From an uncultured bacterium (GTDB taxonomy: Bacteria > Cyanobacteriota > Vampirovibrionia > Gastranaerophilales > Gastranaerophilaceae), in the NCBI GenBank assembly GCA_902766395.1, contig CACXDL010000041.1, positions 1,400 through 65,399 on the forward strand: 64,000 nt of DNA. The letters are read 5' to 3'. The translations under genes and the position numbers were made by a program. A model generated the notes under the pieces. It did no database searches. It was given only the letters and a program-made list of their open reading frames with translations, and had not been told where the DNA came from. Of this stretch, positions 5,986 through 33,803 are shown one piece after another (within the stretch, counting starts at the first letter, position 1; each line of letters begins with the position of its first letter).

Positions 5986-8900
5986 ATGAGTTTTGATATT
6001 CCCAAAAGCGATAATTTGATAATAACAACAACGCCAACAACAACAGTGGCGCAAACTGCGATGCCATCAACAACCATATCGGCATCTACAACTGCTTCTA
6101 CAACAAAAACCAATTCCGTATTTACAGCGACTACAAAACCGACAACTGAAACAGCTGTAACCACGCAAACTGTCTCTCAAAAAGAGCCCGATATAAAAGT
6201 TATAGAAAAAAACAAAATAATTGAAAATTTAAAGAAAAAAAACAAAGATAATAAAGTAACAGAAGGCGATATATATAATGAATTAAAAAGATTAGAACAA
6301 GAACATCAACTTACTAAAGAACAAAAAGAGCTACTTAAATATTATGAAGAATTAAAGAATATAGATAAAACAAATCCTGGATATTCGGATAAACTTTTTG
6401 CACAAATTGCACCAGACTCCCTCATATCAGCGGGATTAAACACAAGAACAACTTCAGAAAGTAGCACGCTGGCATCTGAAGAACCTAAGACAGAAAAATC
6501 ACCCGAAGAAAAAGATCTTGAAAACTACATTGCGAAACATAAAGACATATTTGAAAACAAAACCATTGATGATGTTTATTCGTATTTATTACGTAAACCT
6601 GACAAAACAGAAGAAGAACAAAAAATACTAAACATTCTTAAGAGTAATAAAAAAGAAGCATCTCAGGATACCAAGCCTGCAGATGAACAAAGTTCTGCCA
6701 TTTCTCCGGAGAATGCTGAGAAACTTAAAAAATGCAATGAAATAATTCAAGGTTCAGGGACAGATTATGAAAAGTTATCTCAAATTATGGATTTGTATCT
6801 GAGCGAAAATGACCCAGAATACCAAAAACTCCCTGATTATCAGGGAAAAACATATAAGTACGATCGTAAAAGACAGTACAGAGATAAGCTTATTAAAAAA
6901 TTAAGAGAAGACTTCGCTCCAGGGGATTTATCAACTACAGAAAGATCAATAATGCATCAAAAACTTACTGCATTATTTACAAATTGCATTGCCCAAAATA
7001 AAACTATTGATAGCATAACTTCACAAGGAAAAGGGGCACTAAAACAAGAAATAGAAGCTATATCCAATAGAGAATTTAGCTCTATTATACAAAATGTAGA
7101 AACAAAAGGAACGGACCAAGATGTTATAATAAGCTTTGCTGATAAGCTGCTCGCAAATAAACCGGAGTACACAAACTTAACAACTAAAGAAGAAAAAATA
7201 AAATATATAAGATCAAAAGCTGGAGAGATTTTTGAAAAAACTCTTGGTATTCCCGTAGAAAACTTAAAAATAGACTCTGAAACCATGCCACTTATAGAAA
7301 AAGCAGCTGCAGAAGCTATAAAAGAAATTGTCTCAAAAAAATATACTGAATCGGATTTAGAAAACCCAGAAACTCAAAACAAAATTATAAACAATGTTAT
7401 GACAGCTAACCCTGATCTTTTGGAGCAAATCAAAGAAAAACTTCCTAAAGTGTTTAATGGACTTATGGTTTATCTAGAAAAAAATAAACTAATAGCTGAA
7501 TTAAAATTAAACGATAAAGATGGAGTAATTACAGAAGGAGAGATTTATAAGGAGTTAAAAAATAGAGAAAAGAATGGTTCGCTTACTAGTCCTGAGCAAA
7601 AGGAGATGCTTAAATACTACGAGCGCGTAATAATGATGGATAAGGAAATTCCAAATTATTCAAAAACATTATTTAAACAAAAAGCAAGCAATTCCAGTCT
7701 AATAGCACGTGCCGCACTCACAGGCAAAGATGTTCCTACATATATACATGAAATGTTTGCTGGAAAAACTGAACAAGAAATAAATAAAGCTCTGAAAAGA
7801 TTAGTACCGGATGTTAACTCTTTTCCTCCAAATAGCGAAGCATTTATAGCAATATTCACAGAGTTGAAAGAAGTATATGGTCCACAAGAAGCATACAATA
7901 AAATGAAAAAAATGGGAATGAAACAACCACGCGATTTCCAGATTGATGCATTTATTCGCAATGATGGTAAAAGTACTGCAGAATTAGGCAATATAGCTGC
8001 GAATTACGGGACAAAGGCTGAAAAGGAAGAATGCTTAAAAGTTGCCTCTGCATCTGCAAAATTTTTGGATAATGAACAACAGAGTATATATTGGGAAAAT
8101 TCAAACAAATACTACGATAAAACTATTGCTGAAAGTGTTAATAATTACAAAACTAAAGAAGATGCCGTTCAAATTCATGCATATGTTGCAAGTTCTCAGA
8201 TTGTTTCAGACGAAAGAAAATCCTCTGTAACGAAATTCATGGTAGAAACTGCCGCACCTGATAGACAAATTTATTACGCAAGAGAAATGTCAAAAATTAA
8301 AGATGCTGCAGTAACAGAAGGTTTAGCCGCGGCAGAACAAAATGTTGACTCCTCCGTAAGACAACAATATTCTCAATACGTTGATAATGCAATAAAAAAT
8401 AACGGATACACATCTGAGCAAAAAGCTAATATTGAGCAAGCACGCCAAACCGGTCAAATAAGTTATGAGCGCAGCAGTTCTTCTGAAGGGGCATCTGACA
8501 AATCCTCTTCAACCGGAACTAGAACAAGTTCTAACACACCGAGTGCGAGCAGAACTTCCACAGGGTACGCAACAACAGTATCATCCTCAACCGGAGGCTC
8601 TGGGTCCTCTTCCGGAACAGCATCAACATCCGGTTCAAAGCCAACTTATGTTGCATTTGGTTCAACAAATTATGGTGATCAGGTAACAAAGGCTCTTTCA
8701 GATAAAAAAGAAAGAGTTCAAGAGAGAATTACTCAAATTATTGACAATTATCAAAAAACAACAAAAGCTCAAGAAGCAAAATCCGAAAAACAAGCGGACA
8801 CAACAAGTAAAGAAGCCACTTCACAAGCAGCAAAAGCAGCAGAAAAAGAAGCAAAAGTTGTTAAAACCTTTATTGAAAGCCCTCAAGCTTCCGGTAATAT

Positions 8901-9495
8901 TGATGCAAAAACTATTCAGGAATTAAAAACTGCATACAGCTCAGGCGGTATGAAAGGTCTATATGAAAAACTCGGAACACTTGGTGAAACCGTTCAGGAA
9001 AAATTCTTATCATTCTTTGCTAAATACTCAGATGGTAACTCTTTACACAGTTTTGCAAGCAGTTTTTCAAATAATAAAAGCGTAATACTTTCATTGTACC
9101 AGTACAGCAATGATCCATCATTGTTAGCATATCTTGGAGAATCTGCAACAATGGATTTACTCTCCAAAGGTAAGATTAAATTGAAAGATTTCTTAAAATA
9201 TGCAAGCCCTTCAACAATTGCTTTGTATATCAGCGATCTGAACAAAACAGGTAATCATGAATTATTGAAACAAATATTTGGCTTGTTAAATCTTTCCCAA
9301 GCAAGCTATGTTCAACAGCACACCTCAAAGCCGACACTTGGAGGAGACGATTGGATGGAACAACTTCAAGGTAACATGTCACGTGCATCCGGATTTGAAA
9401 TGGCTGATGGACTTGCAATGGGTTCAGACAGAGCTCCTATGGGCAGATCATATGATAAAATGAAACAACGCGGCCCTTTCTACTTTAATGCATAA
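5986..9495 (+). CDS. Large hypothetical protein (1169 aa) with low-complexity tracts and an internal repeat
   Basis: Long uninterrupted ORF. Thr-rich N-terminus, two ~64-aa repeats (6214-6405 and 7486-7680), a Ser/Thr/Gly tract, and a Lys/Ala/Glu tract. No signal peptide or TM segment seen. Confidence 0.65.
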   Translation: MSFDIPKSDNLIITTTPTTTVAQTAMPSTTISASTTASTTKTNSVFTATTKPTTETAVTTQTVSQKEPDIKVIEKNKIIENLKKKNKDNKVTEGDIYNELKRLEQEHQLTKEQKELLKYYEELKNIDKTNPGYSDKLFAQIAPDSLISAGLNTRTTSESSTLASEEPKTEKSPEEKDLENYIAKHKDIFENKTIDDVYSYLLRKPDKTEEEQKILNILKSNKKEASQDTKPADEQSSAISPENAEKLKKCNEIIQGSGTDYEKLSQIMDLYLSENDPEYQKLPDYQGKTYKYDRKRQYRDKLIKKLREDFAPGDLSTTERSIMHQKLTALFTNCIAQNKTIDSITSQGKGALKQEIEAISNREFSSIIQNVETKGTDQDVIISFADKLLANKPEYTNLTTKEEKIKYIRSKAGEIFEKTLGIPVENLKIDSETMPLIEKAAAEAIKEIVSKKYTESDLENPETQNKIINNVMTANPDLLEQIKEKLPKVFNGLMVYLEKNKLIAELKLNDKDGVITEGEIYKELKNREKNGSLTSPEQKEMLKYYERVIMMDKEIPNYSKTLFKQKASNSSLIARAALTGKDVPTYIHEMFAGKTEQEINKALKRLVPDVNSFPPNSEAFIAIFTELKEVYGPQEAYNKMKKMGMKQPRDFQIDAFIRNDGKSTAELGNIAANYGTKAEKEECLKVASASAKFLDNEQQSIYWENSNKYYDKTIAESVNNYKTKEDAVQIHAYVASSQIVSDERKSSVTKFMVETAAPDRQIYYAREMSKIKDAAVTEGLAAAEQNVDSSVRQQYSQYVDNAIKNNGYTSEQKANIEQARQTGQISYERSSSSEGASDKSSSTGTRTSSNTPSASRTSTGYATTVSSSTGGSGSSSGTASTSGSKPTYVAFGSTNYGDQVTKALSDKKERVQERITQIIDNYQKTTKAQEAKSEKQADTTSKEATSQAAKAAEKEAKVVKTFIESPQASGNIDAKTIQELKTAYSSGGMKGLYEKLGTLGETVQEKFLSFFAKYSDGNSLHSFASSFSNNKSVILSLYQYSNDPSLLAYLGESATMDLLSKGKIKLKDFLKYASPSTIALYISDLNKTGNHELLKQIFGLLNLSQASYVQQHTSKPTLGGDDWMEQLQGNMSRASGFEMADGLAMGSDRAPMGRSYDKMKQRGPFYFNA

Positions 9496-15417: not shown

Positions 15418-15816
15418 TTATTCTTGGTTATTTAGTTTCGCTTTTAATCTCGCTTTTGCCCTTGCAATAGAAGCTTCTATTCGCTTGGCATCCATTCTGG
15501 CATTTGCCTCTTTTAAACGGCGCCTTGCACGCTCAAGAGCCTCTCTTGCACGCATTTCATCTATTTCATCTCCTGCTTCTGCAAGAGTAGTTAAAATTAA
15601 ACATTCTTCATCTTTAAACTGCAAAATACCGCCCATTGTAGTAAAAGATTTTACTTCATTACCGATTTTTGCCTTAGTAACACCGATATCCAAAGCACTC
15701 ATAACCGGAATATGACCTTTTAGGATTCCAAACTCACCGTCTACACCTTTAGTGTAGATCTCATCAACTTCATCATCAAATACAACTCTTTCTTGAGTTA
15801 TTATTTTTAGTTTCAT
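15418..15816 (-). CDS. atpC: F1 ATP synthase epsilon subunit
   Basis: Typical N-terminal beta-sandwich sequence (KLKIITQERVVFD...) and C-terminal helical hairpin. Immediately downstream of atpD. Confidence 0.9.
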   Translation of the reverse strand: MKLKIITQERVVFDDEVDEIYTKGVDGEFGILKGHIPVMSALDIGVTKAKIGNEVKSFTTMGGILQFKDEECLILTTLAEAGDEIDEMRAREALERARRRLKEANARMDAKRIEASIARAKARLKAKLNNQE

Positions 15817-17388: not shown

Positions 17389-18822
17389 ATGGCTATAGGC
17401 AAAATTATTGCGCAAAAAGGGCTTAATTTATTATTTCATAATGGCAGGAATACAAAGAACCTATTAAACGAAACACCTTTATTGCAAATGTCAAAAGAAG
17501 TAGCAACAAAAACAAATACTCCCATCTTACATTTAAGATTGAAGCCGGATATAACAGTTCCTGTAAGACCAGAAACAATGGGCGCAAAAGCTCCTTCATT
17601 TGCCATACACAAAGGGAATATCGATACTCCGGCAGCAGATGCCGAATTAGGCAATTTGGCTCTTAGAATAAATTCTGCAGGGCATAAAATAGAAGCAGAA
17701 TTTAGAAAAACACTACAGAATTTATTTCCGGGATATGATGTTGCCACCAGAACTAAAGGAGTTGACTCTTTGCACTCTAAATTAAAGAAATACATTCCTA
17801 AAAATGGGGTAACCGTAACACAAGATAAAGATGCATATAAATTAACTACAGATTATGTTGCCGGTCGAATAGAACTAAAACAACTATCAAAAGATGAAAT
17901 TAACAACATCATAGAAAATACGGTTATAGACGGGAAAAAACTTACCCGAAGAGAAAAAAGATTTGTTCAAAGACTTTTAAAAAACGATAAAAGCCTGTCT
18001 AAAACACAGAAGAAAGCCGGAGAGAAATACCTTAGGCAAGTGCTACTAAATATGGCAGAAAAACAATCTGAGCCCGCGTTTAACAGTATAATGCTTGGAA
18101 TGATGAAAGATGCACTAAACAGAGGCATTACTACTATAGAAAAACTTGCGGCAGAGAATATTGATCCAAGATTAATAAAAGAATTGCAAACAAACCCAGC
18201 AATCCAGCCAATTAAAGTTACAAGATTCTGCAATTACAGAGGTCCAAACAACATTCCTGTTTTTACTGATAATCAAATCAGGCAAATTAAAAAAATGCAA
18301 TTAGCGACAGGGGAAAAATTTTCAATTGCGACATGCTCTGAAAAAATTGATGTGTCAAAATACGGTTTTGAAAATCTTACAGATATAGAAAAAGCCGCAA
18401 TCAAACAAGGAGGGTACACAAGAGCTCAAATGAATATAGAGCTTCCTGACGGTACAATATCCGAACTTCAAATTGCTGCAGGTAAAGATCCTTTCTATTT
18501 TATAGAACACGATTTAGTTTATAACAATTTACAAAATAAAAATACAATCAATGAGGCAATAAAACCTTTTATTGAAAGATATGATTCATTAGATAAAACA
18601 CAAAAAAATATTTTTGGCAGATATTCACAAAATTGTTACTACGACGACAGACTCCAAGGTCTTGTAGGAACCAGACGAATAAGAAAAAATCCTCACGGAC
18701 TGGGAAGAACTTTCTCAAGAGAATCAATGCATAAGCTATACATGAAAGACGCAGCAGATCAAAACGCAAAAATGAAAACTTTTGTACCTTATATAGAAGA
18801 ACCAATAAATTATGTAGCATAG
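17389..18822 (+). CDS. Divergent RelA/SpoT-homologue (RSH synthetase-like nucleotidyltransferase) with a large insertion
   Basis: Ordered motifs R121-x-K-x3-S-x3-K, D155-YVAG-R160, GGY343, E359-LQI and E373-H...Y378. Spacings mirror those of the bona fide Rel in this window (RAKHYYSIYAK / DVTAVR / NMYQSLH / EVQIRT / AHWRY), except for about 144 extra residues between the DxxGxR and GY motifs. Confidence 0.55.
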   Translation: MAIGKIIAQKGLNLLFHNGRNTKNLLNETPLLQMSKEVATKTNTPILHLRLKPDITVPVRPETMGAKAPSFAIHKGNIDTPAADAELGNLALRINSAGHKIEAEFRKTLQNLFPGYDVATRTKGVDSLHSKLKKYIPKNGVTVTQDKDAYKLTTDYVAGRIELKQLSKDEINNIIENTVIDGKKLTRREKRFVQRLLKNDKSLSKTQKKAGEKYLRQVLLNMAEKQSEPAFNSIMLGMMKDALNRGITTIEKLAAENIDPRLIKELQTNPAIQPIKVTRFCNYRGPNNIPVFTDNQIRQIKKMQLATGEKFSIATCSEKIDVSKYGFENLTDIEKAAIKQGGYTRAQMNIELPDGTISELQIAAGKDPFYFIEHDLVYNNLQNKNTINEAIKPFIERYDSLDKTQKNIFGRYSQNCYYDDRLQGLVGTRRIRKNPHGLGRTFSRESMHKLYMKDAADQNAKMKTFVPYIEEPINYVA

Positions 18823-18834
18823 ATCGGAGAAAAT

Positions 18835-19239
18835 ATGATAGAAATTTTTAATAAAGCTAAAATTATAAAATTAAACCCTTATAAAACAAATACAGTGAAT
18901 AATTTAAATTCTTCACTTAACAAGCTGCTTGAAAACATAACAAAAAGAGCTGAATATGAGATTTCAGACAACCACTATTATCGAAAAATAGATGAATCAT
19001 TTAATAATAGCGGATTAAATTGTAAAGGAATAGCTTTTTCGATTTCTCAAGACAGCGATAAATTCGGCGGTCATTTACTTGAAGTTTCAATGCTGCATCC
19101 ATCTATGAAAAAAGAAGTTTCAAGACCTCTTGCATATGGCAACAAAAAAGACATTCTTGATTTTCTTAAAAAAAAGGAATCCATAAAATCAATAAAAGAA
19201 GATCTTGAAGAAATGGTCGAAGATTTAATACATAATTAA
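18835..19239 (+). CDS. Hypothetical small protein (134 aa), co-transcribed with the RSH-like gene
   Basis: Starts 12 nt after the stop of the upstream gene, with a GGAG Shine-Dalgarno in the gap. No family recognised. Confidence 0.55.
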   Translation: MIEIFNKAKIIKLNPYKTNTVNNLNSSLNKLLENITKRAEYEISDNHYYRKIDESFNNSGLNCKGIAFSISQDSDKFGGHLLEVSMLHPSMKKEVSRPLAYGNKKDILDFLKKKESIKSIKEDLEEMVEDLIHN

Positions 19240-31405: not shown

Positions 31406-32334
31406 TGAAATATGCAGTAAGATATTTAAAAAATACATATTATCCTTTAGATGTCCCTGAAAAAACCACTTTAACAGACGGACAAATGGTAATTGCAAGA
31501 ACAGAAAAAGGGGAAGAAGCGCTAAGGGTTTTTATTGTAAACTCAAAAATCGAAGAAATTTGGGAAAAATCAAAGCAAAAACCTGCCCCACTCCCTTTGA
31601 TTAAAATTATGACTCAAAGAGATCTACAAACTTTAGATGAAATAAAGAAAGAAGAAGTTAGCGCATATTTTAAATGTCAGGCACTGATAAAGCAACACAA
31701 GTTGGTTATGACTCTTGTTCAATGCAGAATTACATTTGACAAAAGGAAAATAACTTTTTATTATACAGCACCTGAAAGAGTTGACTTCAGAGGATTACTG
31801 AAAGATTTAACGCAAACGTTCCAGAGAGTAAGAATTGATTTACGCCATATCGGAGTAAGAGATGAAACTTCAATATTAGATGGTTGCGGTATTTGCGGAC
31901 AACCATTCTGCTGCGGAGGATTTTTGAAAAAATTTCCGACAATTAACATTAAACTTGCCAAAGATCAGGGTATGCCAATTGCTCCCGGGAAGATATCCGG
32001 AACATGCGGACGCTTACTTTGTTGTCTGAATTATGAATATTCAAATTATATTGAAGCTGCAAAAGGTATGCCACCAATCGGCTCTTCTGTTATGACAACT
32101 GAAGGACTTGGTAAGGTTTGTTATCTTCAGTTTATGAGCGGAAAAGTTGCAGTAAAAATGGAAGATGGCAAAACTAAAGAATTTGATAAAAATGATATTG
32201 AAATGGTTGATGCTGAGGTCAATGTTGAAATTGATACAAATCCTTCAATTAACAATTACGCATCTGAAGATGAGCAGAACATTGATATTAAACAACTCGA
32301 AGATGATCGTAACAGTTCAACGGGAAATATCTAA
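31405..32334 (+). CDS. PSP1 domain protein (YaaT/RicT-like)
   Basis: PSP1 C-terminal domain with a Cys cluster (CGICGQPFCCGGF...GRLLCCLNYE). Start overlaps the gpsA stop (TAATG). Confidence 0.8.
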   Translation: MKYAVRYLKNTYYPLDVPEKTTLTDGQMVIARTEKGEEALRVFIVNSKIEEIWEKSKQKPAPLPLIKIMTQRDLQTLDEIKKEEVSAYFKCQALIKQHKLVMTLVQCRITFDKRKITFYYTAPERVDFRGLLKDLTQTFQRVRIDLRHIGVRDETSILDGCGICGQPFCCGGFLKKFPTINIKLAKDQGMPIAPGKISGTCGRLLCCLNYEYSNYIEAAKGMPPIGSSVMTTEGLGKVCYLQFMSGKVAVKMEDGKTKEFDKNDIEMVDAEVNVEIDTNPSINNYASEDEQNIDIKQLEDDRNSSTGNI

Positions 32335-32335
32335 T

Positions 32336-32365
32336 AAAAAAGAGGAACATATGTTCCTCTTTTTT
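32336..32365. terminator. Bidirectional rho-independent terminator
   Basis: Perfect 20-bp palindrome AGAGGAACATATGTTCCTCT (32341-32360), flanked by an A run and a T run, between convergent genes. Confidence 0.8.
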
Positions 32366-32378
32366 ATTAGTTTGCAAA

Positions 32379-33647
32379 TTAAGCATTGAATGTTTTGAAT
32401 GAAGATTCAACGTTTTTGGAAATAACTTTCTTAACTGCATCAAGTTCGGTTGAAATCGCATTTTCTTCAGTATCTAATTGCTTTAATTTCAATTCTAAGT
32501 TTTTATCTTGTTGTTGAATTACTTCAAGTTTTGAATTAATCTCCTGAATTTTATGGTCATATTCATGCTGAGCATAGTGGTATTGATTCATTGCATCATT
32601 ATATGCTTCTTCATCAGTTGTTGTAGTTGTAGTCAAGCTATAAGAAGTTTGATTACCTTCTTTATCGAACAATGTTATTCCGATATATCTTCCTGATGAA
32701 TCCTTTTCGACAACAGCTTTTTGATTTAATACTTCTTTCGTTTGAGTACTTGAACCTAATGAATAGCAGTCGATATTTGCCAAATCATTTGCGGTATATT
32801 TTTCATTGTTATTTAAATCTTCTATTTTGTAGAAATATGGTTCATAAGAGCCGGTTGTAGAATTTTTAACATATCTTACTGCCCAGGTTGTATCCGCTCC
32901 ATATTTATCCTGAAGCATTTTAATATAATATCTTTCTTCTTCTAATAAATCAGCACGTTGTTTCTCGTCCAAAGAGTTGTAATAGTCATCTCCAAACGGA
33001 TTAGATACTTGCAATGCTAGGATGTCTTGTCCTTCTTCATCTTTTTTTAAAGTACCATCATCATTTGCTTCATATACATCAACACGAATAACTATAAAAT
33101 TACCATTTTCGTCTTGTATAGGAACTCCCCCAGGTCCACTTTTGAGATGTTCCTTAATTACGACAGGTTCTTTGTAATATGCATATACTCCAGAACCGCT
33201 GTCACCATCAGGTAGGAAAACTTTAACAACATCATCCTTAAGTCTTGGTTCTTCCCCAAGAGATCTTAATTTTGAAGTTCCCACAGAATATACAACTGTT
33301 CCATCCAATCTTTTAGACCTTGCAATAAGAGCAGAAGACGCAGGAGTAATTGAATAATCATCTTGCCATTGCTGTAAATAGCTTACAGAATATTCTCCAG
33401 ATCCTCTTGCAATAAGAGAGGTTACCGTATTAGTCATTGCACCATCATTAAATGTATAGCTGACTTTTGTATAATCATCAACTGATGGAGGTGTCGGAAC
33501 TTCCATATTACACAATTCACTGTAATAACTTGCAGATTCGTTTGACAATGTTGTTCTTTGCTGGTTAATTTGTTGACCTTCAAATTCAACATTTGACTTT
33601 CTTGCTGTTAGGCTTAAGAATCTTGCCTGTGTAGCTGACATTCCCAT
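32379..33647 (-). CDS. Hypothetical protein (422 aa) with helical N- and C-termini around a beta-rich core (filament-protein-like architecture)
   Basis: Monocistronic, with terminators on both sides and a sigma-28-like promoter. N-terminus MGMSATQARFLSLTARKSNVEFEGQQINQQ. C-terminal ~70-aa heptad-like helix (...KLEVIQQQDKNLELKLKQLDTEENAISTELDAVKK...). No signal peptide. Confidence 0.6.
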   Translation of the reverse strand: MGMSATQARFLSLTARKSNVEFEGQQINQQRTTLSNESASYYSELCNMEVPTPPSVDDYTKVSYTFNDGAMTNTVTSLIARGSGEYSVSYLQQWQDDYSITPASSALIARSKRLDGTVVYSVGTSKLRSLGEEPRLKDDVVKVFLPDGDSGSGVYAYYKEPVVIKEHLKSGPGGVPIQDENGNFIVIRVDVYEANDDGTLKKDEEGQDILALQVSNPFGDDYYNSLDEKQRADLLEEERYYIKMLQDKYGADTTWAVRYVKNSTTGSYEPYFYKIEDLNNNEKYTANDLANIDCYSLGSSTQTKEVLNQKAVVEKDSSGRYIGITLFDKEGNQTSYSLTTTTTTDEEAYNDAMNQYHYAQHEYDHKIQEINSKLEVIQQQDKNLELKLKQLDTEENAISTELDAVKKVISKNVESSFKTFNA

Positions 33648-33683
33648 AGCTTTTTCCTTTCGTCTTTTACGTTATTACCCATG

Positions 33684-33711
33684 GTTACGGCTAGTTTTTG
33701 CATGAACTTTA
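33684..33711 (-). promoter_or_regulatory. Sigma-28-type promoter candidate (weaker)
   Basis: Minus strand: TAAAGTTC (33711-33704), 12-nt spacer, GCCGTAAC (33691-33684). The -35 matches 7/8, the -10 matches 5/8, and the spacer is 1 nt longer than consensus. Lies 36 nt upstream of the ATG. Confidence 0.4.
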
Positions 33712-33750
33712 AGATTTTGAGACTTATTGTTAACATTTTGTTACATTCAT

Positions 33751-33781
33751 AAAAAAAGGTCGTAATCGAGAGATTACGACC
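33751..33781 (-). terminator. Rho-independent terminator of the SIMPL-domain gene
   Basis: Minus strand: GGTCGTAATC, loop TCTC, GATTACGACC, then TTTTTTT (the plus-strand A run at 33751-33757). Confidence 0.75.
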
Positions 33782-33803
33782 TTTAAACCCTTTTGTAATA
33801 ACT

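Follow-up and report, generated by a model that had tools for sequence, protein, structure and literature searches.

The 64-kb stretch of Gastranaerophilaceae DNA analysed here (the window; 33% guanine plus cytosine, GC) carries, at 32379..33647 on the minus strand, an open reading frame (ORF) of 422 amino acids (aa) with an ATG start, whose product founds a large and undescribed protein family. The gene is a stand-alone transcription unit with a conserved sigma-28 (FliA/SigD)-type promoter, a second site upstream of that promoter and a strong ribosome-binding site. An earlier note on this DNA, made from the letters of the sequence, had described the gene as monocistronic and insulated by strong terminators on both sides, and folding calculations bear this out with an intrinsic terminator on each flank. 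The terminator of the upstream SIMPL gene (33784-33755, minus strand) is a 13-bp stem followed by a T run, with a folding free energy (dG) of -17.9 kcal/mol and a z-score of -5.4, and the palindrome at about 32331-32370, with a dG of -25.5 (z -10.2) for the minus and -23.9 (z -7.5) for the plus strand, is a bidirectional terminator between convergent genes. A scan of the locus against Rfam gave sub-threshold matches only, driven by these terminators. Adjacent and nearby genes are of the housekeeping kind (SIMPL, PSP1-family, GpsA, RsmG, MinCDE and others), and no flagellar gene is present anywhere in the window.

The sigma-28-like promoter that the earlier note had read as a partial consensus match is no chance resemblance. 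It has the form TAAAGTTC-N12-GCCGTAA (33711-33685, minus strand), and this site is the one match in the window to the pattern TAAAGWWH-N11/12-GCCGWHA, against 0 expected from 100 shuffles. A promoter of the same type lies upstream of 75 of the 81 copies of the family gene in the Gastranaerophilales loci that were fetched (four of the other six copies sit where the contig ends at that point), and it recurs ahead of two homologues in a second order, at loci L178 and L183. In the 75 copies the motif is TAAAG(T/A)TT, a spacer and (G)CCG(A/T)NA, where the invariance of TAAAG was built into the search and the flanking consensus is tTAAAGtTT; the spacer is 12 nt long in 68 copies, 11 nt in five and 13 nt in two, and the -10 element lies a median of 38 nt from the ATG. 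The family consensus, tTAAAGTTT-N12-tGCCGATAA, reads as essentially the FliA/SigD consensus, TAAAGTTT-N11-GCCGATAA, plus one extra base in the spacer. A motif of the TAAAGTTT-N11/12-GCCGATAA type, a suitable distance to the ATG and conservation among orthologues are what is expected of a member of a sigma-28 regulon, and all three are found. In 1.39 Mb of sampled DNA, with both strands counted, a strict form of the motif is found at 61 sites, of which approximately 50 precede family genes, so that within this DNA the motif is nearly exclusive to the family.

Transcription is predicted to begin a few nucleotides past the -10 element, near 33677. Further upstream, two half-sites of the form GTAAC/GTTAC/TTAAC start at -33 and -22 from TAAAG (11 bp apart), and at least one GTAAC/GTTAC occupies these fixed positions in 57 of 72 loci as compared with a background of 0.10 per 60 nt; this element is probably the binding site of a regulator. 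The good Shine-Dalgarno sequence noted earlier is likewise upheld, with AAAGGA at 33660-33655 in the window and GAAAGGR no more than 25 nt from the ATG in 63 of 72 loci. In loci L057 and L061 a C10 tract falls inside the promoter spacer, about 50 nt upstream of the gene, and the spacer there is 13 nt rather than 12; this suggests slipped-strand phase variation and makes the tract a candidate on/off switch of the family gene. Two smaller features of this region may be recorded. The upstream element occupies the same place throughout L005-L084, with a third repeat, TAACATG, in some loci. In addition, 44 of the 72 family leaders (33648-33684 in the window) contain at least two GGA motifs, one of them within the Shine-Dalgarno sequence, a pair resembling the two CsrA sites of the Bacillus subtilis hag leader.

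The architecture of the protein is consistent with the expectation that helical termini flank a beta-rich core. AlphaFold2, supplied with 120 homologues, models the full protein at a mean predicted local distance difference test (pLDDT) score of 85.9, placing a helix at residues 5-46, beta strands at 60-160, a low-confidence region at about 160-215, a helix at 228-249, beta strands at 255-344 and a helix at 346-421. The core, formerly given as probably beta, is thus beta-rich as supposed, refined by the one helix (228-249) within it, and a separate model of residues 47-346 (pLDDT 84.6; predicted template modelling score, pTM, 0.72) has strands of 27-28 residues. The C-terminal helix has a heptad register that can be read from the sequence (Y349, Y356, Y363, I370, I377, L384, L391, I398, V405). 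Alignments show the family termini to be near-invariant, starting MGMSASQARFLSLTARKNNVEFEGQQINQQRT and ending LKQLDTEENAISTEMDAVKKVISKNVESSFKTFNA. Between the window protein and its closest homologue identity is 97% over residues 1-112 and 92% over the last 205 residues, as against about 20% in the 105 residues between, and conserved termini around a hypervariable centre of variable length are a pattern of the flagellin type. The earlier proposal of a variable middle domain consequently holds for approximately residues 113-217 and fails for the remainder of the core, which is conserved within Gastranaerophilales. Family proteins range from 297 to 765 aa, T, D, S, N and Y are frequent and C, W, H and M scarce in their middle region, and one member, P0110, has a second insertion site just ahead of the TTTTTTDEE motif. 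No signal peptide is visible in the sequence of the window protein, again as anticipated. The features of the locus are collected in Table 1.

Table 1. Features of the hairpin-family gene and its surroundings (positions are those of the window).
Feature	Position	Strand	Remarks
422-aa ORF	32379..33647	-	Member of a new, Melainabacteria-specific family; sole copy within the 64-kb window
N-terminal helix, residues 5-46	33510..33635	-	Near-invariant in the family; first arm of the hairpin
First conserved half of the inserted beta domain, residues 50-112	33312..33500	-	Opens with the VPTPPS linker; alignment and models
Hypervariable segment, residues 113-217	32997..33311	-	Unalignable between close homologues; variable length; pLDDT 47-58
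Second conserved half of the inserted domain, residues 218-345	32613..32996	-	Helix 228-249, long beta strands, TTTTTTDEE end; alignment and models
C-terminal heptad helix of 76 residues, residues 346-421	32385..32612	-	Near-invariant; second arm of the hairpin
-35-like element TAAAGTTC	33704..33711	-	Sigma-28-type promoter; pattern search and homologous loci
-10-like element GCCGTAAC	33684..33691	-	Sigma-28-type promoter; spacer of 12 nt
Upstream element TGTAACAAAATGTTAACA	33728..33745	-	Conserved; candidate regulator-binding site
Short 5' leader with conserved Shine-Dalgarno GAAAGGA (33661-33655)	33648..33677	-	Comparison of 72 loci
Intrinsic terminator of the upstream SIMPL gene	33755..33784	-	Insulates the promoter; stem-loop folding
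Perfect palindrome with flanking A/T runs	32331..32370 (approx.)	both	Bidirectional terminator, common to the convergent PSP1-family gene

The family is abundant and taxonomically narrow. In a word-indexed search 3337 relatives were scored; none of them carries a Pfam domain, and those few that are named are called 'hypothetical protein' and assigned to Gastranaerophilaceae. An exhaustive HMMER scan of 1.84 billion cluster representatives returned 2084 clusters (at 50% identity) with an expectation value (E) <=1e-3, 437 of them with E<=1e-30, and among GTDB species, each represented by one genome, there are at least 541 family loci. The best 80 of these loci bear titles of Gastranaerophilales or Melainabacteria, or else titles taken as mislabels ('Brachyspira sp. 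CAG:484', 'Clostridium sp. CAG:967', 'Heliobacteriaceae' and 'Muribaculaceae'), a reading that draws on the similarity of neighbouring genes and on prior knowledge. In every collection searched, the family is confined to Melainabacteria. At least 10 assemblies contribute two or more family loci to these best 80, and tandem copies are found in L035, L046 and L072. Searches of the window protein against Pfam and NCBIfam at E<=10, and of 120 family members against Pfam, gave coiled-coil noise only; the PDB, searched by sequence with the single protein and with a profile, gave no family match beyond such noise; PHROGs gave no match; and no description of the hairpin family was found in the literature. 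The genes neighbouring family loci are housekeeping genes that vary from locus to locus, with no linked transporter gene in the loci examined. An apparent accessory operon of three unknown co-directional genes (c4-c1-c2), which lies ahead of the family gene at 22 of 83 loci, was rejected as mere synteny because an AdoCbl-II riboswitch precedes it, the family gene keeps its own promoter, and the operon is absent from the window.

With a variable central domain of this kind, an origin in a phage or mobile element (as a tail fibre or receptor-binding protein, for example) has to be considered, and a tblastn search of phage records did return one match, in 'Microcystis phage MaAM05' (MW495066.1). 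That explanation can nevertheless be regarded as effectively refuted. The record, titled 'Microcystis phage MaAM05, complete genome' (273,876 bp, 53% GC; L178-L182, L185), is annotated with ribosomal proteins, tRNA synthetases, SMC/ScpAB, SecDF, nusG/secE, motA/motB-like genes, fliL, fliM and fliY, and it is evidently a fragment of a bacterial chromosome, Vampirovibrionales-like in character. Apart from this mislabelled record no relatives were found in the phage collection, among 2.9 million IMG/VR contigs or in the plasmid collection, and both the missing PHROG match and the changing housekeeping neighbourhood speak against a mobile origin. As a side observation on the record itself, a predatory bacterium may here have been mistaken for a phage.

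The matching gene in MW495066.1 is of greater consequence for the family, as it encodes a protein of only 109 aa that aligns to window residues 1-55 and approximately 365-420, that is, to the pair of helices, which here have only a short turn with proline between them (VPTPPS in the window protein, NLEPDSD in the mini form). The near-invariant mini form of the flagellated Vampirovibrionales is shared, at 76-98% identity, by over 100 proteins bearing the label Vampirovibrionales, Vampirovibrio sp. or Melainabacteria. A sigma-28-type promoter precedes two of the three Vampirovibrionales homologues examined, whose genes are at 53% GC (TAAAGGTT-N12-TCCGATAA in L178 and TAAAGATT-N12-TCCGATAC in L183), and the third, in L184, has no clear -35 element. 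Given that the 109-aa form consists of two helices under the same type of promoter, the core of the family is a helical hairpin of about 110 aa under a sigma-28-type promoter, with an N-terminal helix of about 45 residues and a C-terminal heptad helix of 55-75 residues. The whole beta-rich core (200-650 aa) is an insertion at the tip of this hairpin in the gut Gastranaerophilales, with one or two hypervariable sub-regions. The mini gene is carried on the same 274-kb record as motA/motB-like genes, fliL, fliM and fliY.

The size, helicity, class-III-type promoter and monocistronic layout of the mini form are also typical of flgM, and an anti-sigma-28 factor of the FlgM kind, or some other small sigma-28-dependent regulator with a helical basic form of about 100 aa, might be proposed on these grounds. 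We consider this very unlikely. Neither the long form nor the mini form matches a FlgM domain in Pfam or NCBIfam even at E<=1-10, an anti-sigma factor would have no reason to carry hypervariable insertions of 200-650 aa or to occur as several paralogues in one genome, and the hairpin is near-invariant and heptad-regular, whereas FlgM proteins are poorly conserved and largely disordered.

Two further observations concern the surroundings of the mini gene. In Vampirovibrionales two conserved co-directional genes follow it on the 3' side (L178:6458-7748, L183:8428-9719, L184:8442-9745), encoding a Gly/Ala-rich protein of about 315 aa with a C-terminal coiled coil and a coiled-coil protein of about 85-96 aa; both lack a Pfam match, the Gastranaerophilales sample holds no homologue of either, and the hairpin protein may have its partners in this pair. 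A second perfect sigma-28-type site, TAAACTTT-N11-GCCGATAA, is found at 15566-15592 (minus strand) of MW495066.1 (L179), 29 nt upstream of the gene for EMOOHJMP_00015, an acidic protein of 184 aa without a Pfam domain that may be another member of the same regulon.

How the family relates to known export substrates and axial proteins is central to its interpretation. Profiles of Flagellin_N and Flagellin_C (PF00669, PF00700) match neither the window protein at E<=10 nor any of 120 members at E<=0.01; a comparison by hhalign of the family profile with flagellin of the same clade gives a probability of 0.2%; and the helical fold of flagellin D0/D1 is lacking, with a template modelling (TM) score of 0.16 to the best PDB flagellin and a single N-terminal helix in the model. 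The flg_bb_rod and Flg_bbr_C profiles match neither the window protein nor the 120 members, and an ANNLAN-type motif is absent; there is no match to the FliD_N or FliD_C profile or to a D2-D3 fold; and Foldseek finds no hook, rod or FliD domain fold. That the termini resemble no known flagellar family, as the earlier note remarked, accordingly stands. These negative results are not an artefact of clade divergence, since NCBIfam does recognise FlgC (104 bits) and FlgF/G (120 bits) of the same clade. The same control bears on the idea that the hairpin protein is a true but extremely diverged homologue of flagellin, FlgK/FlgL or FliD. Conserved terminal helices around a variable middle are the same design, flagellins are the top Foldseek matches (non-significantly so), and a flagellin gene adjoins the family gene in four loci. 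Set against this are the failure of the Flagellin_N/C, flg_bb_rod and FliD models on all 120 members, the hhalign value, the single N-terminal helix where flagellin D0/D1 has two to three, and a minimal form of only 109 aa, and the idea is accordingly very unlikely.

Likeness in design is another matter. With flagellin (FliC/Hag) the family shares conserved heptad-like terminal helices, a variable middle that is dispensable in minimal forms, the lack of a signal peptide, a sigma-28-type promoter, a monocistronic and strongly terminated unit, paralogues or tandem copies, a hint of promoter phase variation and, in places, adjacency to flagellin genes, and the insertion of a beta domain at the hairpin tip follows the same logic as flagellin D2/D3. 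It departs from flagellin in its want of sequence, profile or fold similarity, in its frequent cysteines, in having one helix per side and a 109-aa minimal hairpin rather than the four-helix D0/D1 unit of about 250 aa, in an inserted domain whose fold is not found in the PDB, in its presence in genomes without hook, filament or motor, and in its promoter, which is not the one found at the canonical flagellins of its clade. The injectisome needle and filament subunits, PrgI/MxiH and EspA, offer a possible parallel to the minimal unit of the family, a small alpha-helical hairpin with a proline-containing turn and very conserved termini; they are exported by type III systems and polymerise through their two helices, such that an insertion in the turn would face outward. 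The family helices are longer (about 45 and 55-75 residues versus about 35 each), its promoter is of the flagellar class-III type, no PDB sequence match to needle proteins is obtained with the long or the mini form, and the hairpin topology alone is shared. We know of no injectisome genes in these genomes, and none is present in any context examined. Rod, hook and hook-associated proteins (HAPs; FlgB/C/F/G/E/K/L) together with FliD also bracket beta-rich domains between an N- and a C-terminal helix and are most conserved at their termini, and FliD and FlgK/L are sigma-28-dependent in many bacteria, yet the family has neither a profile nor a fold match to them. In sum, it shows none of the testable marks of rod/hook/HAP, FliD, FlgM or needle proteins and no detectable homology to flagellin; the hairpin protein may work like flagellin by analogy.

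The genomic setting connects the family to flagella in a qualified manner. A canonical flagellin gene lies 1 kb from the family gene in L069, and among 80 metagenomic loci that carry related flagellins, L120, L129 and L158 have the family gene directly upstream of the flagellin gene; an identity of 40-70% between the neighbours in these flagellin-adjacent loci and genes of Gastranaerophilales favours placing the loci in that order. Flagellated members of the wider group are known, including V. chlorellavorus (PMC4451040), three of nine Gastranaerophilales genomes (Soo et al. 2014) and approximately 25% of the order in a later survey (bioRxiv 10.64898/2026.04.24.720558). In that survey about 75% of Gastranaerophilales retain a subset of the export machinery only, with a postulated role in secretion and no known cargo (bioRxiv 10.64898/2026.04.24.720558). 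The genome Zag_111 is listed with FlgB/C/F/G, FlhA/B and FliI/P/R and without FliC, FlgD/E, FlgK/L, FliD, FliF/G/M/N, FlgH/I and MotAB (Soo et al. 2014 Table S5), and it carries the family gene together with its promoter (L040). The earlier note had held that homologues mainly in non-flagellated genomes would speak against a flagellar role, and Zag_111 is partly such a case, having the gene without flagellin, hook, cap, C-ring or motor, though with export genes. The presence of the family in this genome argues against a simple additional part of the swimming flagellum and would fit a protein exported by the apparatus that remains. Reduced flagellar export devices have been seen elsewhere, as in the basal bodies of Buchnera, and the Gastranaerophilales that lack flagellin, hook and motor resemble these in keeping FlhA/B, FliI/P/R and the rod. 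To our knowledge no dedicated, lineage-specific, sigma-28-driven cargo or filament protein has been described for any reduced flagellar system, and the link of the hairpin family to such systems is one that we infer.

From this evidence we tentatively favour, at somewhat less than an even chance, the reading that the hairpin protein is exported late by the flagellar type III apparatus, as a class-III-like substrate, and then assembles by way of its helices with its variable domain on display, by analogy with flagellin. Outside the cell its near-invariant helices would pack against those of neighbouring subunits, much as in flagellin D0/D1 or in the hairpins of injectisome needles, and the inserted variable domain would point outward, where host immunity and phages could reach it. 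In those Gastranaerophilales that keep only the export gate and rod, the hairpin protein might be the principal cargo or the distal structure. Exposure of the middle domain is suggested by its cassette-like replacement, its T/S/N/D/Y-rich composition, the arrays of paralogues and the possibly phase-variable promoter.

Several points weigh against this reading. No homology to any axial protein was found, and the axial or filament role, export, surface location and polymerisation are all steps that we infer by analogy. By Foldseek, the best PDB match of the full model is indeed a flagellin, at an E of 7e-3, a probability of 0.41 and a TM score of 0.16 that are not meaningful, and nothing in BFVD is significant (best E 0.013); the beta core likewise has no significant match in the PDB (best E 0.056, TM <0.12, to OspA, RHS and beta-pore-forming toxins). 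The reduced systems reportedly lack FliF and the L and P rings (Soo et al. 2014 Table S5), leaving the route across the outer membrane unexplained. Most family members have 2-3 cysteines, which is unusual for flagellar export substrates. Seven alleles from the window's own species, adjoining an identical SIMPL gene, differ by 0-3 amino acids, and the variation is therefore seen between species or strains and not at the within-species depth of sampling used. Lastly, the mini form is extremely conserved, as would be expected just as well of an intracellular protein that has a conserved partner.

These last points are also the strength of a different explanation, in which the protein belongs to the flagellar or motility regulon and is never exported, serving instead as an intracellular or periplasmic coiled-coil scaffold, adaptor or regulator with a conserved partner such as the export gate, the motor or a chemotaxis array, the insertion being an add-on of one clade. 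An identity of 76-98% across Vampirovibrionales is what a partner-binding module would have, cysteines occur in most members, variation within the window's species is slight, many lineage-specific flagellar accessories are known, and the sigma-28-type promoter places the gene in a regulon while remaining silent on location. A non-exported protein would nevertheless leave unexplained the cassette-like replacement of the middle between near-identical termini, the range of 297-765 aa and the T/S/N/D/Y-rich composition, the multiple and tandem paralogues and the homopolymer tract in the promoter spacer of L057/L061, and the family persists in genomes without motor, C-ring or filament. We regard this explanation as rather unlikely.

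The identity of the sigma factor bears on the matter from another side, and here too the evidence runs partly counter to flagellar export. No FliA gene was detected in the sampled DNA by tblastn with B. subtilis SigD and Escherichia coli FliA queries typed by hand, and the sigma factors near family loci are of the RpoD or extracytoplasmic function (ECF) type. The only group-3 sigma factor seen, annotated 'fliA' in MW495066, is closest by profile score to cyanobacterial SigF (NF005644, 208 bits with a cut-off of 261), scoring 121 bits against FliA_WhiG (cut-off 190), and so lies below both family cut-offs. Moreover, the sigma-28 motif is absent upstream of canonical flagellins of the same clade, where it had been expected as a positive control. 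These flagellins share instead CTGAAAC...G(9-13)...CTAAATA or TATAAT, the spacer of which contains a homopolymeric G tract (CTGAAACCCTTACGGCTGTA-G(9-13)-CTAAATA or TATAAT, at L069:14140-14155 on the minus strand and in L098-L177, about 60-80 nt upstream of the starts), and the variable length of the tract suggests a phase-variable flagellin expression not driven by the sigma-28 motif. As the canonical flagellins use another promoter, the family is not simply co-regulated with flagellin.

Such findings lend some substance to the alternative of a surface or secreted protein (an adhesin, coat protein or toxin) that leaves the cell by a non-flagellar route, for example type I secretion with an invariant C-terminus, vesicles or a pilus-linked pathway, its promoter being read by a group-3 SigF-like sigma factor. 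Cyanobacterial SigF governs pili and secretion and not flagella, the Vampirovibrionales-like 'fliA' scores better against SigF than against FliA_WhiG, the canonical flagellins have their different promoter, the family is kept in genomes without functional flagella, its C-terminus, KNVESSFKTFNA, is invariant, and the elongated beta core with strands of 27-28 residues has its weak best matches in OspA, RHS and beta-pore-forming toxins. On the other hand, the motif matches the FliA/SigD consensus almost base for base and does not match the SigB/SigF-type -10 element, GGGTA, reported for cyanobacterial SigF targets; the group-3 sigma factor falls short of both models; no transporter gene is linked to the family; the fold matches are insignificant (E>=0.056, TM<0.12); and in four loci the family gene adjoins flagellin. 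A non-flagellar route is, in our estimation, unlikely.

Export through the flagellar apparatus, to return to the reading favoured above, may be carried one step further. Gut Melainabacteria without a swimming flagellum could use the export gate and rod to build or secrete a needle- or flagellin-like hairpin polymer, homologous to neither, with a hypervariable and possibly phase-variable outer domain. This would amount to an independent conversion of a flagellum into an organelle of secretion or adhesion, with a subunit that arose de novo in Melainabacteria, and the 109-aa form would be an unrecognised flagellar component of flagellated relatives. Taken with all of its parts this extended proposal is speculative, and we hold it to be a little less probable still than a non-flagellar route.

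The implications nonetheless deserve attention. As gut symbionts, Gastranaerophilales are widespread in humans, above all in non-industrialised populations, and in other animals, and the hairpin family offers a concrete candidate for the cargo or distal structure of their export remnant. It is abundant, with thousands of sequences, restricted to Melainabacteria, and conserved in promoter and terminal helices across two orders, while the variable domain of the gut lineage is of the kind expected of antigens exposed to host or phage. Were the proposed export and assembly true, the family would represent a new type of type III-exported polymer, a second example of a repurposed flagellum beside the injectisome, and a major surface antigen of a human gut lineage about which little is known. 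Should the export reading be wrong, the family still provides a new core member of a sigma-28-type regulon in the non-photosynthetic relatives of Cyanobacteria, and a conserved promoter-plus-operator module that is directly testable.

Some minor observations fall outside this argument. An AdoCbl-II (cobalamin) riboswitch (RF01689, 43-47 bits) precedes operons of the c4-c1-c2 type at L013:7055-7131, L053:7103-7180 and L064:4155-4227, and the proteins encoded there, all without a Pfam match, are of about 235 aa with the motif CPxGxxxGACPICxG, about 495 aa with hydrophobic, transmembrane-like stretches, and about 160 aa; they are possibly new components of B12 uptake or binding in Gastranaerophilales. 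Within the window itself several large conserved ORFs have no recorded Pfam family, at 5986-9495, 17389-18822 and 18835-19239 on the plus strand and in the region 118-2199, and these Pfam-less ORFs include proteins of 1169, 477 and 134 aa beside the ATP synthase genes.

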